Shown: positions 3,161-14,183 of the stretch, piece by piece
How positions within the stretch are numbered: the stretch's first letter is position 1
How the letters are laid out: every line of letters starts with the position of its first letter
Assembly (NCBI GenBank): GCA_035606075.1
Contig: DATNGC010000158.1
Span: forward strand, 1 to 17,159
Source: Elusimicrobiota bacterium
Lineage (GTDB): Bacteria > Elusimicrobiota > Elusimicrobia > UBA1565 > UBA9628
Length of the DNA stretch: 17,159 nt
Direction: 5' to 3'
Translations under genes and position numbers: made by a program
Notes under the pieces: model-generated
What the model saw: the letters and a program-made list of their open reading frames with translations, nothing else
What the model was told of the DNA's origin: nothing
Databases searched by the model: none

Positions 3161-4148
<988 letters not shown>

Positions 4149-4156
<8 letters not shown>

Positions 4157-4445
4157 ATTTTTTCACCTTTCCGCCGGAGACGACCGAGTCCACGATGCCC
4201 ACGATCACGGTCCGGATCGGCGCCTTGTCGTCGTGCAGCACCGAGCGCGCCGACCCGCCCTCGTCCATCACCAGAACGATCGAGCCCGGCCCGGAGCCGG
4301 TCACGTACTCCACGGCCATCTGCGCGTCGCCGAGCGGCTTCTCCGTCTGTGGATCGATAGGCCGCACGAGGAGAAGGCGCTTGTCGCACAGAGAGCAGTG
4401 CTTGCGCGTCCCCCACACGTTGCCGACGACTTCCGCTACAAACAT
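4149..4445 (-). CDS. BMC-P vertex pentamer protein (EutN/CcmL/PduN family), copy 1
   Basis: The protein reads [16 protein letters not shown]...LLLVRPI...[20 protein letters not shown]...IVGIVDSV. Its last 8 nt overlap the deoC start (ATGAATGA). Confidence 0.85.
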
Positions 4446-4455
4446 TCTTAATCTT

Positions 4456-4671
4456 TCAGCCGGCGAGAGCGACCTCGAACGGCTTTTTCTTCAAATTGCT
4501 GATCTTCAGAACCGAAAACCCGAGCACACGGCCCTCCGCATCGACTTTTTGCATGACTTGCTCATGTTTTGTCTCGCGAAAATAACCGGGTGTCTTGGAA
4601 TCGAACAGGACTTCGAGAAAATCTCCTTCAGGATCGAACCACACCTTCATCCTCGCTTTCACTTTGGCCAT
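4456..4671 (-). CDS. DUF2283-like small protein (putative antitoxin partner)
   Basis: This 71-aa protein is MAKVKARMKVWFDPEGDFLEVLFDSKTPGYFRETKH...GRVLGFSVL, the DUF2283 pattern (MK..YD.E.D.LYI). The real start is the ATG at 4671; the longer 152-aa track ORF has a junk N-terminus. It overlaps the upstream gene by 13 nt. Confidence 0.55.
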   Translation of the reverse strand: MAKVKARMKVWFDPEGDFLEVLFDSKTPGYFRETKHEQVMQKVDAEGRVLGFSVLKISNLKKKPFEVALAG

Positions 4672-4979
4672 AATCTCGGACCTCGTTTGATCGTGTCGGT
4701 GTAATACGCCGTCAAGACGAACGCATCGTGCGAGCGAATCTTGACCACGACGCAAAGATATTTGTCGCCGACGGGACTTCCAAAGATATAACGATAGTAT
4801 AGCCGCGCCTCGCCATCGGCGCGAGACTGAACGACCTGCTCGGGATGAAGAAGAATTCGACCGATGTCGGAAAGGCTTCGGTACATTTCTGGGTGTTCTT
4901 GGATATGATCCCACCTTTCATCGGTCAGCCGAATGCTTCGCCCTTCGTAGTCGTGAAAGACTTTCAAGGCGCCGCCCAC
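4659..4979 (-). CDS. DUF4258-like small protein (putative toxin partner of the downstream DUF2283-like gene)
   Basis: This ORF of ~100 aa is MGGALKVFHDYEGRSIRLTDERWDHIQEHPEM...KYLCVVVKIRSHDAFVLTAYYTD. It has a GTG start at 4979 or a TTG at 4967. Its size, its 13-nt overlap with the DUF2283-like gene and its low GC fit a TA module. Family assignment is from memory. Confidence 0.45.
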   Translation of the reverse strand: MGGALKVFHDYEGRSIRLTDERWDHIQEHPEMYRSLSDIGRILLHPEQVVQSRADGEARLYYRYIFGSPVGDKYLCVVVKIRSHDAFVLTAYYTDTIKRGPRLWPK

Positions 4980-5323
4980 GTTGCCTTCATTCCAGATGGA
5001 ATCACCAGCGTCCAGGCAATACGGGGTTCCAGTAGCCCCGTCACGTCACTTCTCGGGATAATATATAGGCATGGCGTCGTTTCGATGTCCTCAACCAGAT
5101 AAACGAAGTAGTCCATATGCTTCTGAATCGCTCTGAAGTGATGCATCTCCATCAATCGCCAGCCGGCGCTCTTCTTTCCGACCCCTTTTACTTCAATCTT
5201 CCGACCAATGGACTCAACATCGTATCCCTGCCCTTGTTTAATTGCGCGCGCGGTGCGACCTTGTTTCCTCTCGTATTCGATCACGAATTCAACGGCCTTT
5301 GTCTCTATCTCTTTGTTGGTCAT
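4964..5323 (-). CDS. small PD-(D/E)xK nuclease-fold protein (DUF3883 / Mrr-cat-like)
   Basis: This 119-aa protein reads ...AVEFVIEYERKQG...GYDVESIGRKIEVKG..., which gives an E...D...E-x-K arrangement typical of restriction-endonuclease-like folds. The gene is low GC. Confidence 0.45.
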   Translation of the reverse strand: MTNKEIETKAVEFVIEYERKQGRTARAIKQGQGYDVESIGRKIEVKGVGKKSAGWRLMEMHHFRAIQKHMDYFVYLVEDIETTPCLYIIPRSDVTGLLEPRIAWTLVIPSGMKATWAAP

Positions 5324-5365
5324 GCAATCCGTCCTGTCATGGCTGAATCTAGAGATATTACGCGG

Positions 5366-6046
5366 CTATTCGTCCCGCAGTTTGCTTTCGAATGCTGCCT
5401 TGTCTTTCTGTTCGGATAGGCTCGTCCTTTTCTCATCATCCTTTTCTTTTGACCAGCGAACCGCCATCAAATCCTTATCTATAAAAATGACGCCGCGTTC
5501 CCAGTATGTCTTCTCATTGCGAGGTATTTTCTGCTCATACAGCATCATTTCCCGATTGCCATCCCGCCAAAATGCCGCCTGACTGCATTTCGGCGTAACA
5601 GGGTTTCCTTCATATCGATTTGAAAAGGAGCTTACCAGCATCCAGCAATAAACAAGCGGGTCCGCGTGAGCGGCATTGTTGGGGCCATATTTTTCAGACT
5701 TAAACTTCAACAATCCGCTGAATCCGTACTGTCCGGCCTTGTGGCCATACCGTCCCAGCATCTTGTCAATTCGATGGTTGATGACAGTGTAATACACGTC
5801 GACATATGGCTCTGGTATTACGTCGCCCTGCGAGGACAAAAGCGTGTAAATCGAGGCTATGCCATCGGCGTCTTCCTTTGACGTCGGCATACCGACTTCA
5901 TACTTGCCGATGCCCATTCTTAATTTCCTATTAGGCACATCCACGGCATAAGCAACGAGTTGCCCGAAAGTTAACAGAAAAATCAGTTTGGCATATCGCT
6001 TCCCTGTCTGCCCGCGGTTAATCGAACTCATTCCCAAGGAAATCAT
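5366..6046 (-). CDS. secreted hypothetical protein with an N-terminal signal peptide
   Basis: This 226-aa ORF begins MISLGMSSINRGQTGKRYAKLIFLLTFGQLVAYA|VD, a signal-peptidase-I-type leader. The gene is low GC. Its ATG overlaps the TGA of BMC-P copy 2 (ATGA). No family was recognised. Confidence 0.45.
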   Translation of the reverse strand: MISLGMSSINRGQTGKRYAKLIFLLTFGQLVAYAVDVPNRKLRMGIGKYEVGMPTSKEDADGIASIYTLLSSQGDVIPEPYVDVYYTVINHRIDKMLGRYGHKAGQYGFSGLLKFKSEKYGPNNAAHADPLVYCWMLVSSFSNRYEGNPVTPKCSQAAFWRDGNREMMLYEQKIPRNEKTYWERGVIFIDKDLMAVRWSKEKDDEKRTSLSEQKDKAAFESKLRDE

Positions 6047-6318
6047 CGGAATTTTTTGACCTGATGTCCGTCGACGATCCCCACGATCGCCGCGTCGACG
6101 GGCGGGGCGTCCGGGAAGGCCACGGCGGCGTCCCGGGACGCCACCCAGAATACTTTTTCCGAAGAGCCCGCGCCGACGGCGTCGGCCGCCACGATGGGGT
6201 CCCCGATCGCGGATTCGTCCTCCCAGCGCAGCGGTTGGATCAACAATAGGGTCTTTTTGTCCACAGCCGGGTCCTGGCGGGAGCAGAAGACGCGGCCGAT
6301 CACGCGGGCGAGCTTCAT
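6043..6318 (-). CDS. BMC-P vertex pentamer protein (EutN/PduN family), copy 2
   Basis: This 91-aa protein is MKLARVIGRVFCSRQDPAVDKKTLLLIQPL...VAADAVGAG...AAIVGIVDGHQV. It is the genuine C-terminal part of the 399-aa Arg-rich track ORF 6043..7242. Its ATG overlaps the rpiB TGA (ATGA). Confidence 0.85.
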   Translation of the reverse strand: MKLARVIGRVFCSRQDPAVDKKTLLLIQPLRWEDESAIGDPIVAADAVGAGSSEKVFWVASRDAAVAFPDAPPVDAAIVGIVDGHQVKKFR

Positions 6319-6764
6319 CGCGAGTACTTCCTCTCGATGGCCGCGACCTTGGCGAGGCGGCCCTCGTGGCGGCCGCCCTCGAACGGAGTGGAGAAGAACA
6401 CCTTCACGATCTCGCCGTGGATCAGCTCGCCGTGCGACTTGCCGCCGATGCACAGGACGTTCGCGTCGTCGTGCTGCGCCGCCATGCGCGCCGACACCGA
6501 ATCGTAGGCCGCCACCGCGCGGACTCCCGGGACTTTGTTCGCGGCCATGCACACCGCCCCGCCGAAGCCGTCGATCAGCACGCCCTTGTCGAACTCGCGC
6601 CGCGCGACCGCCTCGGCCACGAGCTGGGCCACGTCGGGGTAGTCCACCGCGTCGAGCGAGTGACAGCCGAAGTCGACCACCTCGTGGCCCATTTTTTGAA
6701 TGGCCTTCTTGATGAAGTCCTTCGCGGAGAATCCGCCGTGGTCGCTGCCGATGACGACTTTCAT
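6315..6764 (-). CDS. rpiB: ribose-5-phosphate isomerase B (RpiB/LacAB family)
   Basis: The protein MKVVIGSDHGGF...DYPDVAQLVAEAV...GVLIDGFGGAVCMAANKVPGVRAV...ANVLCIGGK...EGGRHEGRLAKVAAIE is closely colinear with E. coli RpiB, as recalled. Confidence 0.9.
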   Translation of the reverse strand: MKVVIGSDHGGFSAKDFIKKAIQKMGHEVVDFGCHSLDAVDYPDVAQLVAEAVARREFDKGVLIDGFGGAVCMAANKVPGVRAVAAYDSVSARMAAQHDDANVLCIGGKSHGELIHGEIVKVFFSTPFEGGRHEGRLAKVAAIERKYSR

Positions 6765-7320: not shown

Positions 7321-8349
7321 TTACACTCCCAGCGCCTGACGCGTTGTGGCGTCGGCGGTCTTTTCGTTGAACCAGTTCGGGTACATGGGCACGGGCGCGG
7401 TCGCGGCGTCCAGCGTCGAGACCTCATCCTTCGTCAGTTCCAGATCGGCGGCTTTCAAGTTGTCTTCGAGCTGGGACATCTTGCTCGCTCCGACGAGGAT
7501 CGTGGTCGCCCAATCCTTCGAGAGCAGCCAGGCCAAGGCGACGGACGCCACCGAGGCGCCTTTTTTCTTCGCGATCTTCCCCATCGCGTCGATCAGGTCG
7601 TACGCCTTTTCCTTGTCCGTGGGCAGGAAGTCGAAATCCTTGAGCCGGCCCGAGCCGCCCGTCGGGTCCTTGCGCGTGTACCGGCCTGAGAGGAAGCCCC
7701 CCGCGAGCGGCGACCAGACCATCATCCCCACGCCCGCGGCGCGCATGAACGGGACCGTCTCGTGCTCGACGTCGCGCCCCACCAGCGACGCGTACATCTG
7801 CGCCGCGCGGAAGCGCGTCCAGCCCTTTTCTTTCTGAGTCGCGACCGCCAGCGCCGCCTGCCAGGCGGGCCAGTTGCTGTAGCCGACGTAGCGGACCTTG
7901 CCCGAGCGCACGAGGTCCTCGAGCGCGCGCAAGGTCTCGTCGAGCGGAGTGAACGGGTCCACGCGGTGAACGACGAAGAGGTCGAGCCAGTCCGTGCCCA
8001 GGCGCTTGAGGCTGCCCTCGGCCTGCATGATCAGGTTGCGCGCCGAGAGGCCCGTGCGCAGCTGCGAGTCGGAGGCGCGGAAGCCCGCCTTCGTGCAGAT
8101 TGCGATCTCCGCGCGCTTAGCGCCCAGAGCCTTGCCCAGGATCGTCTCGGACTCGCCGCCCGCGTACATGTCGGCGGAGTCGAAGAGATTGATGCCGGCA
8201 TCGAGACAGCGCCCGACGAGCGCGTTCGCCTCTTTCTGACCCGTCTTCCAGACGTTGCCCATCGGGCCTTGGCCCGAGCCGAACGTCATCGAGCCGAACG
8301 AGAGACGGGAGACGACGAGACCGGTGTCGCCGAGTCGAGCGTATTTCAT
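7321..8349 (-). CDS. aldo/keto reductase family oxidoreductase (Tas/YajO-like)
   Basis: This 342-aa protein is MKYARLGDTGLVVSRLSFGSMTFG...DSADMYAGGESE...KRLGTDWLDLFVVHRVD...GKVRYVGYSNW... It is the real C-terminal part of the 559-aa track ORF. Its ATG overlaps the aldehyde dehydrogenase TGA (ATGA). Confidence 0.85.
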   Translation of the reverse strand: MKYARLGDTGLVVSRLSFGSMTFGSGQGPMGNVWKTGQKEANALVGRCLDAGINLFDSADMYAGGESETILGKALGAKRAEIAICTKAGFRASDSQLRTGLSARNLIMQAEGSLKRLGTDWLDLFVVHRVDPFTPLDETLRALEDLVRSGKVRYVGYSNWPAWQAALAVATQKEKGWTRFRAAQMYASLVGRDVEHETVPFMRAAGVGMMVWSPLAGGFLSGRYTRKDPTGGSGRLKDFDFLPTDKEKAYDLIDAMGKIAKKKGASVASVALAWLLSKDWATTILVGASKMSQLEDNLKAADLELTKDEVSTLDAATAPVPMYPNWFNEKTADATTRQALGV

Positions 8350-9800
8350 CACGCGATCCTGAAGTAGCCCACGAGCGAGCAGTGCAGCGGCCGCGCGAAG
8401 TGGCTGGTCTTGGTCAGCCCGTCGCCGGTCGGCGTGCCGATCGACATCGTGGCGTAGCCCTCTCCCAGGCCGAGGCCGTAGAGAGTGGGCGCGTTCTTGA
8501 CGTAGATGGAGCACTGCATGCGCCGCGCCATCTTGGTCAGGTTGCCGACGTTCGTGGAGTGCATGGCCGCCGTGTGGCGATGCCCGCCCTCGGCCTCGAC
8601 GGCGAGAGCGATCGCCGCGTCCACGTCGGGCGCGACCGTGACCGGCAGGACCGGCATCAGCTGCTCGGTCCAGACGAGCGTGTGGTCGTTGGGCACCTCT
8701 CCCCACAGCAGGCGCACGCCGTCCGGGACGGTCAGGCCGATCCCCTTGGCGATGAACGCCGCGTCCTTGCCCACGTAGTCGCGGTTGAGGACGGGATCCT
8801 TGCAGCCCTTGCCGCCGACCTTGATGACCACCTTCATGAGCTGATCCATCTGCTCGCGCGAGAGCTCGAAGGCGCGCGAGTCGGCGCGCATCGCGGCGAG
8901 GAAGCGGTCGCGCGCGGCGGCCGTCACGATGACTTCTTTCTCGGCGGTACAGAGAACGTTGTTGTCGAACGACGCGCCGAAAATGACGTCTTGAGCGCAC
9001 TTCGGAAAAATCGCCGTTTCGTCCACGACGACAGGGGGATTTCCAGGCCCGGCAGCAATCGTTTTACAAGTCTTGCCCACCGTCATCGCAACCTTGACGA
9101 TGGCGGGGCCGCCCGTGACCATGTTCACGCGCGCGTCGGGGTGAGCGAGCAGGTTCTTGGTGTTGTCCTGCGAGGGCTTCTCGAACGTCGTGATCAGGCC
9201 GCGCGGCGCGCCCGCGGCGACCGCGGCCGCCGCGAGCAGGCGCATCGTCTCCAGACAGACCTTGAACGACGCCGGGTGCGGCGCGAAAACGACGGAGTTT
9301 CCGGCCGAGAGGATGGAGAGGCCGTTGTTGATGATCGTCGCGGCCGGGTTCGTCGACGGCGTGATCGCCGCCACGACGCCGTACGGCGCGTACTCGACCA
9401 AGGTGAGGCCCTTGTCGCCGGTGAAGCACTTGGAGGTCAGGTCCTCGACGCCCGGCGTGCGCGTCGCGCAGACCAGGTTCTTCTGGACCTTGTCCTCCCA
9501 GCGGCCCATGCCGGTCTCCTCGCGCGCCATCTTGGCGAGGCGCTCGGCGTTGGCGATGGCCGCCTTGCGCATCGCGCGGATCACCTCGCGCCGCAGCTCG
9601 AGGCCCTGGTCCTGGAAGACCGCCTGCGCGCGCTTGGCCGCCTGCACTGCTTCGTCGACGGTCGGAAAGAGCACGCCGTCGCCGGCCCCCGCGGACGAAA
9701 CAGGAGCGGAGGGGCTCGCGGTCACGACCGAGCCGAGTTCCTCCTTCTCGAGGCGCTTGAGAACCTCGGCGATGACGCGGGCGATCTCCTCGCTCTGCAT
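8349..9800 (-). CDS. CoA-acylating aldehyde dehydrogenase (PduP/EutE family) with N-terminal encapsulation-peptide-like helix
   Basis: This 483-aa protein starts with the amphipathic helix MQSEEIARVIAEVLKRLEKEE, followed by a Ser/Ala/Gly linker. The core has ITPSTNPAATIINN and the VLCTAEKE catalytic-Cys region typical of BMC aldehyde dehydrogenases. Confidence 0.9.
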   Translation of the reverse strand: MQSEEIARVIAEVLKRLEKEELGSVVTASPSAPVSSAGAGDGVLFPTVDEAVQAAKRAQAVFQDQGLELRREVIRAMRKAAIANAERLAKMAREETGMGRWEDKVQKNLVCATRTPGVEDLTSKCFTGDKGLTLVEYAPYGVVAAITPSTNPAATIINNGLSILSAGNSVVFAPHPASFKVCLETMRLLAAAAVAAGAPRGLITTFEKPSQDNTKNLLAHPDARVNMVTGGPAIVKVAMTVGKTCKTIAAGPGNPPVVVDETAIFPKCAQDVIFGASFDNNVLCTAEKEVIVTAAARDRFLAAMRADSRAFELSREQMDQLMKVVIKVGGKGCKDPVLNRDYVGKDAAFIAKGIGLTVPDGVRLLWGEVPNDHTLVWTEQLMPVLPVTVAPDVDAAIALAVEAEGGHRHTAAMHSTNVGNLTKMARRMQCSIYVKNAPTLYGLGLGEGYATMSIGTPTGDGLTKTSHFARPLHCSLVGYFRIA

Positions 9801-12662: not shown

Positions 12663-14183
12663 TCATTCCCCCAAGGAGATCAAGCGCCCGGCCGGAGGCG
12701 GGGCGATCGTCTTCTGCTTCTCGGCGCACGCGCGCAGGGCGTCGCGCGCGAGCAGTCCGGTGTCCCGCGGCGAGGCCGACGAAAACTCCTCGTAGCTGCC
12801 CGCCAGGAAATCGAGCGTCGCGACCGAGTACGTCTTAGCGTCGTCGAGCGGCGCCCCGCCGACCGTGACCCTGCCGAGGCGCGAGCCGCGCGGCTTGAGC
12901 GGGGATATCTCGGCCGTCATGCCGCCGATCTGCGCGATCTTCGGCGAGCCGACGACGTGGTCGAGGGCGGCGCGCAGCTTGGCCCCGCTCATGCGCAGGG
13001 TGACCACGGTGTCGTCGAAAGGCATGGCCTCGAACAAGCGGCGCAGGGTGACGGGCCCCGCCGGGATGTCCGCGCGGATGCCGCCGCCGTTCATGATGAA
13101 CGCGTCCGCGTCCTCCGTCGCCTTGAAGCAATCCGCCATCCAAGAGCCCAGGCCGGACTCGCCGGCGCCGGCGCGGTCGAGGTCCCGCGTCGCGGTCGCG
13201 ACGACGAGCCTGAACGCCTCGCCGAGGTCCTTCTCGCGCCGGTCGACGATCGCCTTCATCGCGGGGTCCTGTCCGAGGCGGTCGACCCACAGGTCGAGAA
13301 GCTCGTCGGAGGACGCCGTCACGCGCCTCGTCGCGGGATCGATCTTGAGGGTCGCCCGGCCGACCTTGAAGAAGTAGGACCCGGCCTGGACGATCAAGGT
13401 CCCGTGGGCCGGATCGCGCCACGCGCGGGACAAGGTCGTGTGGGTGTGGCCGCCGACGATCAGGTCGATGCCTTCCACCTCGCGCGCGAGCGTCTGGTCG
13501 CCCTCGAAGGGCGGCTTGTCCGGCGCCTCGAAGCCGACGTGCGTGACCGCGATGATCACGTCGGCGCCCTCCTTCCTCAGCGCCGCGACCTGGTCGCGGG
13601 CCTCGTCGGTCTCGCGGCGGAAGGTCAGGCCCGCGATCTTGCCGGGGACCTCGAGCCGGTCCATGTGCGACGTGATCAGGCCGAAGATCCCGAACTTGAC
13701 CCCGGAGACCTCCTTGACGATCCTCTGTCTCGTCCAGGAGACGTGCTTGCCGGACGAATCGTAGATATTGGCGGCGAGGACCGGCATCGCCATCTTCGCG
13801 TTGAGCGCGGCCGCCGAGGACCAGCCCGCGTCGAACTCGTGGTTGCCCATCTCGACGGCGTCGTAGCCCATCGCGTTGAACGCCTCGGCGACGGCCTCGC
13901 CGTGCGTCGTCGAGCCCTCGGGCGTGCCCTGCCACCAGTCGCCCGCGTCGAGGACGAGGCGGGGATTGGAGTCCCTGTTCAGCAGCGACTTCATCGCCGC
14001 CGCGCCGCCGATCGGACGGCCGTTGCGCTTGTCGGTCTGCGGCATGATCCAGCCGTGCACGTCGTTGGTGTGGTAGACCCGCACGACGATCGGCGCGGGC
14101 ACGGCGGCGGCGCCTTGGTCCTGCGCCCGGACGAACGGACAGGCGAGGGCCAGCGCGAGGGCCGGCAGGCCGAGCCGTCTCAC
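12663..14183 (-). CDS. secreted bifunctional metallophosphatase / 5'-nucleotidase (UshA family)
   Basis: This 506-aa protein has a signal peptide MRRLGLPALALALACPFVRAQDQ, metallophosphoesterase motifs (YHTNDVHG, GNHEFD, GGHTH) and a 5'-nucleotidase C-terminal domain. It has a GTG start that overlaps the upstream stop (GTGA). Confidence 0.8.
   Translation of the reverse strand: MRRLGLPALALALACPFVRAQDQGAAAVPAPIVVRVYHTNDVHGWIMPQTDKRNGRPIGGAAAMKSLLNRDSNPRLVLDAGDWWQGTPEGSTTHGEAVAEAFNAMGYDAVEMGNHEFDAGWSSAAALNAKMAMPVLAANIYDSSGKHVSWTRQRIVKEVSGVKFGIFGLITSHMDRLEVPGKIAGLTFRRETDEARDQVAALRKEGADVIIAVTHVGFEAPDKPPFEGDQTLAREVEGIDLIVGGHTHTTLSRAWRDPAHGTLIVQAGSYFFKVGRATLKIDPATRRVTASSDELLDLWVDRLGQDPAMKAIVDRREKDLGEAFRLVVATATRDLDRAGAGESGLGSWMADCFKATEDADAFIMNGGGIRADIPAGPVTLRRLFEAMPFDDTVVTLRMSGAKLRAALDHVVGSPKIAQIGGMTAEISPLKPRGSRLGRVTVGGAPLDDAKTYSVATLDFLAGSYEEFSSASPRDTGLLARDALRACAEKQKTIAPPPAGRLISLGE

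Follow-up and report, generated by a model that had tools for sequence, protein, structure and literature searches.

Why do four small genes of atypical composition lie between two shell genes of a bacterial organelle operon, and do they belong to the organelle? Microcompartment loci are usually treated as compact modules in which each gene is a candidate organelle part. The locus considered here is carried by a complete contig of 17,159 nt (the whole stretch of DNA analysed, hereafter the window) from an Elusimicrobiota metagenome-assembled genome (MAG), which contains an operon for a sugar-phosphate-utilisation (SPU) bacterial microcompartment (BMC). Four genes, all on the minus strand and tightly packed, separate the genes of the vertex proteins BMC-P2 and BMC-P1. 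In the direction of transcription, they are designated X226 (a probable exported protein), NOVC (a nuclease-type protein), P (a putative toxin) and D (its putative antitoxin). A preliminary description of the sequence had proposed that this block is either a horizontally acquired addiction or defence mini-island or a set of unrecognised lumen or shell accessory proteins. As presented below, the block is an insertion, and it is probably accessory, conflict-type cargo that accreted in two steps at one junction of the SPU operon, not a set of organelle parts. Less expected are two associated features, namely a putative toxin–antitoxin (TA) lineage confined to one type of BMC operon and a defined cargo-accepting segment within this operon.

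An insertion between two vertex-protein genes

The composition of the block differs markedly from that of its surroundings. Positions 4446–6046 (1601 nt) have a GC content of 0.495 versus 0.682 for the rest of the contig (z = −6.5 in a comparison with 248 windows of equal length elsewhere in the contig, the lowest of which reaches 0.641). The change is abrupt at both edges when measured in 100-nt bins, from 0.45 to 0.71 at 6046 and from 0.60 to 0.53/0.45 at 4446. The same holds for GC at third codon positions (GC3), which amounts to 0.56–0.61 in the four block genes and 0.84–0.96 in the flanking genes.

Orthologous SPU loci were sampled independently of the block, four from Elusimicrobia (DeoC scan, one genome per species) and 80 from JGI metagenomes (BMC-P2 scan); none of these 84 loci encodes X226, NOVC, P or D in tblastn searches. 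The nearest relative, L089, also lacks all four genes. Its flanking proteins share 97% (RpiB), 96% (BMC-P2), 100% (BMC-P1) and 96% (DeoC) amino acid identity with those of the window, and its flanking DNA is 92–93% identical (93.3% for the nucleotides of BMC-P1). In L089, as in L090, L092 and L097, the BMC-P2 stop overlaps the BMC-P1 start as TGATG, and BMC-P2 of the insertion-free loci ends in ..FRKGR*, whereas that of the window ends in KKFR*, its last three codons being missing. In other words, ~12 nt of the window, comprising these three codons and the TGATG overlap, are replaced by 1601 nt. Since the GC break is sharp at gene boundaries and the block is absent from L089 and from the 84 loci, the block is an insertion, and it combines compositional anomaly with presence/absence among close relatives, by which horizontally acquired DNA is operationally defined.

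A second locus, L169, which comes from a different sample, shows that this insertion is nested. It has the same truncated KKFR* end of BMC-P2, followed by P, D, a 10-nt spacer and BMC-P1, and it lacks X226 and NOVC. The P start overlaps the preceding stop as GTGA, the BMC-P2 stop of L169 occupying the position held by the NOVC stop in the window. Identities between the two loci are 91% for BMC-P2, 83% for P and 90% for D. The P–D insertion is thus common to both and, because L169 carries P–D alone at an identical junction, X226 and NOVC were added later or, less simply, were lost in L169. At the nucleotide level, P–D is 81% identical between the two loci and the flanks are 83% and 76% identical; the synonymous divergence (dS) of P and D, about 1.05–1.3, implies that the P–D insertion is not recent. 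In a BMC-P2 tree of low resolution, L089, whose junction appears ancestral, groups with the window and inside L169. This placement of an empty locus with the window inside a P–D carrier suggests that inserted and empty alleles were exchanged between related lineages, and the presence/absence pattern among close relatives would be best explained by such homologous recombination involving related operons. An L169-like recombination tract was also considered for the final ~20 nt of the window's BMC-P2, an idea dropped because other, insertion-free loci share the TTCCGG ending.

The block does not have the attributes of a classical genomic island, transposon or integron cassette. A scan of positions 4000–6500 for target-site duplications, inverted repeats and attC-like structures returned matches at chance level and a 19-nt similarity between BMC-P paralogues, and the proteins scanned over the 17 kb of the window included no recognised product of a mobility gene. 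The junctions being codon overlaps, they leave no space for an attC site.

These results bear on several statements of the preliminary description. The low-GC stretch between the two BMC-P genes is real, and the coordinates, the ATGA overlap, the 10-nt spacer and the overlapping gene pair are all correct. The mini-island reading stands insofar as neither the nearest relative nor any of the 84 loci has the block, and has to be revised insofar as L169 reveals two nested events, not one block. Occurrence of all four genes at the equivalent position of related genomes, which had been named as counter-evidence to acquisition, was not observed, nor were flanking direct repeats found at the boundaries beyond chance level.

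The P–D pair resembles type II toxin–antitoxin modules

P matches the Pfam family PBECR2 (E-value 4.5e-7, 30.5 bits, cut-off 27.1) and, below threshold, the related BECR-fold family DUF4258 (17.6 bits versus 25). An AlphaFold2 model built with 60 homologues (pLDDT 96.7, pTM 0.89) predicts the BECR RNase fold, so that profile and model together assign P to the family of BECR-fold RNase toxins. P also retains all 17 columns that are invariant among the 60 homologues. More than 645 homologues were found, mostly of 102–104 amino acids and covering 96% of the listed open reading frame (ORF), which has 106 amino acids when read from GTG 4979, and since their lengths point to it, TTG 4967 is taken as the start of P. 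Gene calls differ at this place: the JGI record starts from GTG 4979, and P is skipped in the ENA-derived record (gap at L001:9488–9781).

D matches DUF2283 (6.8e-5, 23.4 bits versus a cut-off of 23). A small DUF2283-type gene lies directly downstream of P in every context examined, namely eight further SPU loci, two non-BMC loci and Leptospira plasmids, in which the pair adjoins parB and a VapC toxin gene. The partner has 66–71 amino acids across 11 further contexts and is a 51-residue fragment at the contig end in L173. The ratios of non-synonymous to synonymous divergence (dN/dS) of 0.09–0.21 for P and 0.03–0.09 for D indicate purifying selection on both proteins. The Pfam search of D returned the DUF2283 match only and no helix–turn–helix or ribbon–helix–helix domain. 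Neither P nor D, nor X226, matches any PADLOC entry; P, D and NOVC have no match in PHROGs or NCBIfam, and their sequence searches against solved structures gave nothing meaningful.

Type II modules with BECR RNase toxins and toxin-first order (BrnT/BrnA, HigB/HigA; DUF4258, Gerdes 2025, PMC11980606; PBECR2, Iyer et al. 2017) are the closest known parallel. P shares with their toxins the small size, the fold and the family-conserved residues. P–D likewise forms a two-gene unit with a 13-nt overlap, has relatives on plasmids beside partition and VapBC genes, and evolves under purifying selection. Unlike these modules, P–D has no promoter of its own and D no recognisable DNA-binding domain, so that the autoregulated promoter and DNA-binding antitoxin that define type II systems were not found; the pair is embedded, through start/stop overlaps, in a long catabolic operon, and its sub-lineage is known solely from SPU microcompartment operons. 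DUF4258 is treated in the literature as a BECR-fold type II toxin family listed without known target or experimental reference (PMC11980606; bioRxiv 10.64898/2026.08.28.747851). The DUF2283 partner is a putative antitoxin, not experimentally validated as such according to the literature found.

A putative toxin–antitoxin lineage confined to SPU operons

Of the P homologues whose genomic context is known, the seven closest among 5.8 billion proteins searched (64–83% identity) are all encoded inside SPU operons. The pair occurs at the BMC-P2/BMC-P1 junction in the window and L169, at RpiB/BMC-P2 in L083, L084, L085, L086 and L171, and at AldDH/BMC-T in L172; in L173, it lies downstream of RpiB and the contig ends before the next gene. 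The three junctions are neighbouring, and every pair has the orientation of the operon and is closely coupled to the adjacent genes. In a neighbour-joining tree of the 120 best P matches, SPU-type P proteins form an exclusive clade of eight, including one context-less fragment, and the next relatives outside this clade (L087 and L170) belong to unrelated operons. In every carrier, the GC content of the pair is below that of its flanks (0.50–0.57 versus 0.62–0.72), as is its GC3 in every lineage (0.59–0.75 versus 0.8–0.9), and dS between P–D copies is at least 1.

Trees of RpiB, AldDH and BMC-P2 show carriers that are scattered, each with nearest relatives devoid of the pair. Because none of the 84 sampled loci carries P–D and the nearest relatives of the carriers lack it, the pair is rare and dispensable, yet specific to the SPU operon family. 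Its history may be one of long residence with frequent loss or of transfer among related operons, as both fit the data.

NOVC, a stand-alone nuclease-type protein

NOVC matches the Pfam family NOV_C (formerly DUF3883; 1.1e-8, 35.4 bits, cut-off 22.1) and, in PADLOC, the C-terminus of the Tiamat protein TmtA (1.6e-11). It was aligned with two large helicase-type proteins encoded on plasmids, over their C-terminal DUF3883 domains, and residues D35, E44 and K46 are invariant throughout this alignment. With an above-threshold profile match and a D…(D/E)xK motif, NOVC is assigned by its sequence to the PD-(D/E)xK proteins of the NOV_C/DUF3883 type. It shares the profile match, the TmtA match and the D..E-x-K motif with the NOV_C domains of large defence ATPases and helicases; unlike them, it is a stand-alone protein of 119 amino acids without an ATPase or helicase body. 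No close homologue was found in the database of 5.8 billion proteins and no relative in viral contigs.

X226, a probable exported protein with few relatives

Searches of Pfam, PADLOC, PHROGs and NCBIfam gave no family for X226, which matched only itself in the 5.8-billion-protein database. When 1.84 billion representatives were scanned exhaustively with HMMER, two real remote relatives emerged, P0123 (E-value 1.8e-8) and P0124 (8.7e-5); a third candidate, P0122 (1002 amino acids), was rejected as a low-complexity repeat artefact. Two Cys residues of X226 are conserved. The N-terminus consists of a K/R-rich n-region, a hydrophobic stretch of 15 residues and the sequence A-Y-A, and the canonical signal peptide of P0124 aligns to X226 residues 22–36; X226 is thus probably exported by the Sec pathway. 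NCBI (VN915_14065) annotates the gene as a product of 183 amino acids starting from Met44, without the signal-peptide-like region. As conservation in the alignment with the remote homologues reaches upstream of Met44 and includes the invariant Pro38, the 226-residue ORF is the likelier call.

The remote relatives sit in mobile or defence contexts, the sole informative one being that of P0123, which is flanked by an integrase of phage type, a resolvase and a restriction–modification (RM) system of type I. An HU gene and a weak match to a Y1 transposase lie in the vicinity of P0124. X226 has no match on plasmids and no relative in viral contigs.

A hypervariable segment in the middle of the operon

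Gaps of at least 200 nt between consecutive core genes were surveyed in about 85 SPU loci. Such gaps occur at AldDH/BMC-T in 8 of 51 loci, at BMC-T/RpiB in 10 of 60, at RpiB/BMC-P2 in 21 of 79 and at BMC-P2/BMC-P1 in 2 of 83, plus the window and L169. None was seen at the four TIM-to-AldDH and the four DeoC-to-ATPase junctions (0/27 to 0/44). Nominal gaps at BMC-P1/DeoC (6/74) were read not as insertions but as unaligned N-terminal extensions of DeoC. Insertions are therefore accepted only at the four middle junctions, which delimit a hypervariable segment running from AldDH through BMC-T, RpiB and BMC-P2 to BMC-P1, and almost all cargo of this segment is co-oriented with the operon.

Part of the cargo consists of TA, RM and nuclease genes. 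MNT/HepT pairs recur at BMC-T/RpiB (L084:3507–4140, L092:2888–3524, L105/L106:5928–6561), and L123 has an MNT-like gene in the segment. L084 holds both an MNT/HepT and a PBECR2/DUF2283 pair. A 5.3-kb insert at AldDH/BMC-T (L113:216–5505) comprises an N6_N4 methyltransferase, a DUF4160/DUF2442 pair, a DUF4097 protein and, on the opposite strand, HicA/HicB. In L161, a relative with 35% GC, a methyltransferase and an HNH endonuclease form an RM-like pair at BMC-T/RpiB, and two small genes without assignment lie between AldDH and BMC-T (L161:4829–6526 and 3529–4238 for these inserts). The junction of the window block is itself occupied in L006, a low-GC Elusimicrobia MAG, by an orphan N6_N4 DNA methyltransferase (5202–6119), which is an independent insertion at the same site.

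Exported proteins make up another part. Caspase (Peptidase_C14) lipoproteins of 445–466 amino acids and native GC are encoded at RpiB/BMC-P2 in at least seven loci, including the closest relatives of the window (Table 1); the window itself has no such gene. A secreted 574-residue protein with PDZ, Sel1 and caspase domains is encoded at BMC-T/RpiB (L100:3437–5161, L114:3470–5191 and, partially, L089:38–685), so that caspase-type genes flank RpiB on both sides in L089. Why exported caspases are present in the operon of a cytoplasmic organelle is puzzling. A Kelch-repeat protein and bPH_4 (bacterial PH-domain) proteins are also counted among the exported cargo; the bPH_4 gene, encoding 86–89 amino acids, is conserved at RpiB/BMC-P2 in a subset of loci (Table 1). 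A third group consists of enzymes, namely aldo-keto reductase (window and L102), glyoxalase, redoxin and hydrolase. The aldo-keto reductase gene of the window (7321–8349, AldDH/BMC-T) is accessory with native GC and is absent from L003–L006 and most other loci; that of L102, 85% identical, occurs together with a glyoxalase. A protein of 172–178 amino acids (MP.NPY..I..AL....FVV.G.S.INFY...) without Pfam match recurs in the segment (L120:562–1080, L129:2972–3490, L123:5584–6120). In L123, one gene (RpiB) separates it from the MNT-like gene, and it may be another toxin or a nucleotidyltransferase-type partner.

The segment resembles the defence and accessory islets found at recombination hotspots between core genes, with TA, RM and nuclease cargo at the same few junctions, presence/absence differences between close relatives, foreign composition and no mobility genes. 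It differs in that the hotspot lies inside a single metabolic-organelle operon, between shell genes, and in that the cargo is co-oriented and translationally coupled, whereas islets are intergenic with their own regulation. The host operon itself is an SPU locus (Axen 2014; Sutter 2021, PMC8217296; Dwyer et al. 2024, PMC11585597), sharing with published ones the defining DeoC with N-terminal extension, RpiB and AldDH as well as PduL, TIM, BMC-H, BMC-T and the BMC-P triplet; TA, RM or caspase cargo inside the loci is not mentioned in the published SPU descriptions consulted. In this widespread but uncharacterised type of BMC, one delimited part of the operon is thus a sink for TA, RM, nuclease and secreted-protease genes, and hypothetical genes of the variable segment should not be presumed to be cargo or shell factors.

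Proposed history of the block and competing explanations

The favoured explanation is as follows. A type II TA-like pair, P followed by D, would have entered between BMC-P2 and BMC-P1, a state surviving in L169. The gene of a rare exported protein and that of a stand-alone NOV_C PD-(D/E)xK nuclease would then have entered between the BMC-P2 stop and the P start. The block would be read as part of the operon transcript and made upon operon induction, since it has no promoter or terminator of its own (no minus-strand terminator was found within it, and promoter-like sites are not above chance, one found versus 1.2 expected) and the start and stop codons of its genes either overlap those of the neighbours or lie next to them. 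The BMC-P2 TGA and the X226 ATG overlap as ATGA, the NOVC ATG is preceded by a Shine–Dalgarno-like AGGACGG motif in the 42-nt spacer, and the P start overlaps the NOVC stop as TTGA. P would cleave RNA unless bound and neutralised by D, and together they would function in addiction or abortive infection; an effector role of the DNase type is proposed for NOVC, and X226 would be exported. The organelle would need none of the four proteins.

Several observations weigh against this explanation or limit it. The P–D clade is exclusive to SPU operons, with dS values of at least 1, and its low GC persists in every lineage; neither would be expected of a random selfish insertion, and both hint at a lasting tie to the operon. 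D barely clears the DUF2283 threshold, and no experimental work on DUF4258 or PBECR2 together with DUF2283 was found in the literature. The host trees are neighbour-joining trees built on short proteins, co-transcription is read from gene layout only, and neither integrase, transposase, flanking repeat nor target duplication was found.

The tie to the operon is taken furthest by supposing that P–D has been domesticated as a promoterless TA module slaved to operon induction, X226 and NOVC being later hitchhikers; the pair would protect the operon from deletion, or would link the switch-off of nucleic-acid catabolism to growth arrest or to mRNA processing. This is considered unlikely. It accounts for the SPU context of all seven closest homologues of known location and for the exclusive clade of eight among the 120 best matches, for the use of three junctions with constant co-orientation and tight coupling, for strong purifying selection while dS reaches 1 or more, and for the occurrence of deeper-branching pairs in deeper-branching hosts. 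However, a pair missing from all 84 independent loci and from the nearest relative of each carrier is dispensable, relatives outside the clade are equally tight in unrelated operons (L087 and L170) or in plasmid maintenance regions, and no link between an RNase toxin and organelle function is apparent. A related and equally doubtful idea extends to the whole segment: the middle of the Elusimicrobiota SPU operon would be a dedicated cassette-accepting region with codon-precise insertion or exchange, and PBECR2/DUF2283 a TA module specialised to it, promoterless, expressed only with the operon on and moving between junctions and between related operons. If this were true, the module would be an operon-level addiction or shut-down switch through which the end of nucleic-acid catabolism is tied to RNA cleavage or to growth arrest.

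The remaining explanations fare worse. That the four genes form a single new anti-phage system, with an exported sensor or anchor, a nuclease effector and a TA switch, is suggested by their co-orientation, tight packing and similarly low GC, and by the presence of a NOV_C domain at the C-terminus of TmtA, the Tiamat defence protein in PADLOC. It is very improbable given that L169 has P–D alone at the same site, that X226 homologues occur without NOVC or P–D, that NOVC lacks close homologues, that no second locus among ~170 fetched carries three or four of the genes, and that PADLOC recognises neither X226, P nor D. Still less credit is given to the view that the block encodes lumen or shell accessory proteins: its position between two vertex-protein genes and its translational coupling speak for it, as does the fact that SPU loci do hold uncharacterised hypothetical genes (PMC11585597), but the block is missing from the closest relative and from the 84 orthologous loci, its families are those of a toxin, an antitoxin and a nuclease, its composition is foreign, and the X226 N-terminus resembles an export signal, not an amphipathic encapsulation peptide. 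With no BMC or EutN domain detected by Pfam in any of the four proteins, the sequences do not reveal the marks of a microcompartment component (conservation in orthologous loci, or else a shell domain or encapsulation peptide). A chimeric assembly, finally, is a natural suspicion for a MAG with a sharp GC break within a contig, a classic warning sign, and has almost no likelihood here: the junctions coincide precisely with start and stop codons, which overlap in frame, ENA and JGI assemblies made separately contain an identical sequence, both the left and the right junction of P–D recur in L169, which derives from another sample, and seven further contigs carry P–D in the same type of operon.

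Of the other statements made in the preliminary description, the family assignments agree with the profile searches, in which NOV_C, PBECR2 and DUF2283 are above and DUF4258 below threshold and X226 has no family. The co-oriented, probably co-transcribed state of the block was rightly perceived, no minus-strand terminator interrupting it, co-transcription being deduced from layout. Lumen or shell accessory proteins find no support. Arrival of P–D as a one-off event does not agree with a clade found only in SPU operons, at three junctions and with dS of at least 1, and the secreted protein next to a vertex-protein gene can no longer be called the oddest member, since this variable segment repeatedly holds genes of secreted lipoproteins of the caspase, Kelch and other types. 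Beyond this locus, P–D offers a natural example of a putative TA lineage that lives in a single kind of metabolic operon and has no promoter to itself, and a tractable system to learn how such modules persist, move and perhaps stabilise host operons.

Organisation of the window

Nearly all real genes of the contig lie on the minus strand according to a GC3 test. In the direction of transcription, rplM, rpsI, the gene of a DUF72 protein and that of a secreted metallophosphatase/5′-nucleotidase precede the SPU operon, which runs TIM, PduL, BMC-H, BMC-P3, AldDH, aldo-keto reductase, BMC-T, RpiB, BMC-P2, the block, BMC-P1, DeoC aldolase, a Cys-rich protein of 102 amino acids, BMC-H and a protein of 87 amino acids, followed by a T2SSE-type ATPase. 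The features of the block and its flanks are given in Table 1.

Table 1. Features of the block, of its flanks and of selected cargo genes in related loci (positions refer to the window unless a locus is named)
Feature	Position	Strand	Remark
BMC-P2, vertex pentamer gene, upstream flank, outside the insertion	6043..6318	-	91 aa
X226, 226-aa near-ORFan, probably Sec-exported, alpha+beta core, long charged C-terminal helix	5366..6046	-	Later addition
Spacer, 42 nt, sole sizeable non-coding stretch within the block	5324..5365	-	Read from the sequence
NOVC, stand-alone 119-aa NOV_C/DUF3883 protein, PD-(D/E)xK nuclease type	4964..5323	-	Later addition
P, BECR-fold RNase-type putative toxin (PBECR2/DUF4258), 102 aa from TTG 4967	4659..4967	-	
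D, 71-aa DUF2283 partner, putative antitoxin	4456..4671	-	Overlaps P by 13 nt
Spacer, 10 nt (AAGATTAAGA), from D stop to BMC-P1 ATG, right-hand insertion end	4446..4455	-	Read from the sequence
BMC-P1, vertex pentamer gene, downstream flank, outside the insertion	4149..4445	-	Pfam EutN_CcmL 2.6e-20
Caspase lipoprotein genes	L089:1128-2465, L091:5628-7004, L096:2996-4381, L100:5604-7004, L104:3512-4897, L108:5599-6984, L114:5634-7004		
bPH_4 gene	L003:9181-9441, L004:~9170-9426, L117:164-427, L120:143-412, L125:3800-4060		

The same block sequence is present in an ENA assembly (L001) and in a JGI contig of 17161 nt (P0002), and PF03319 is on record for the gene of L001 identical to BMC-P2. Rfam has no match in the window. 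The secreted metallophosphatase/5′-nucleotidase (12663–14183) is encoded upstream of the SPU operon with a gene of 198 codons in between, and fits the role in nucleic-acid scavenging that has been proposed for SPU compartments.

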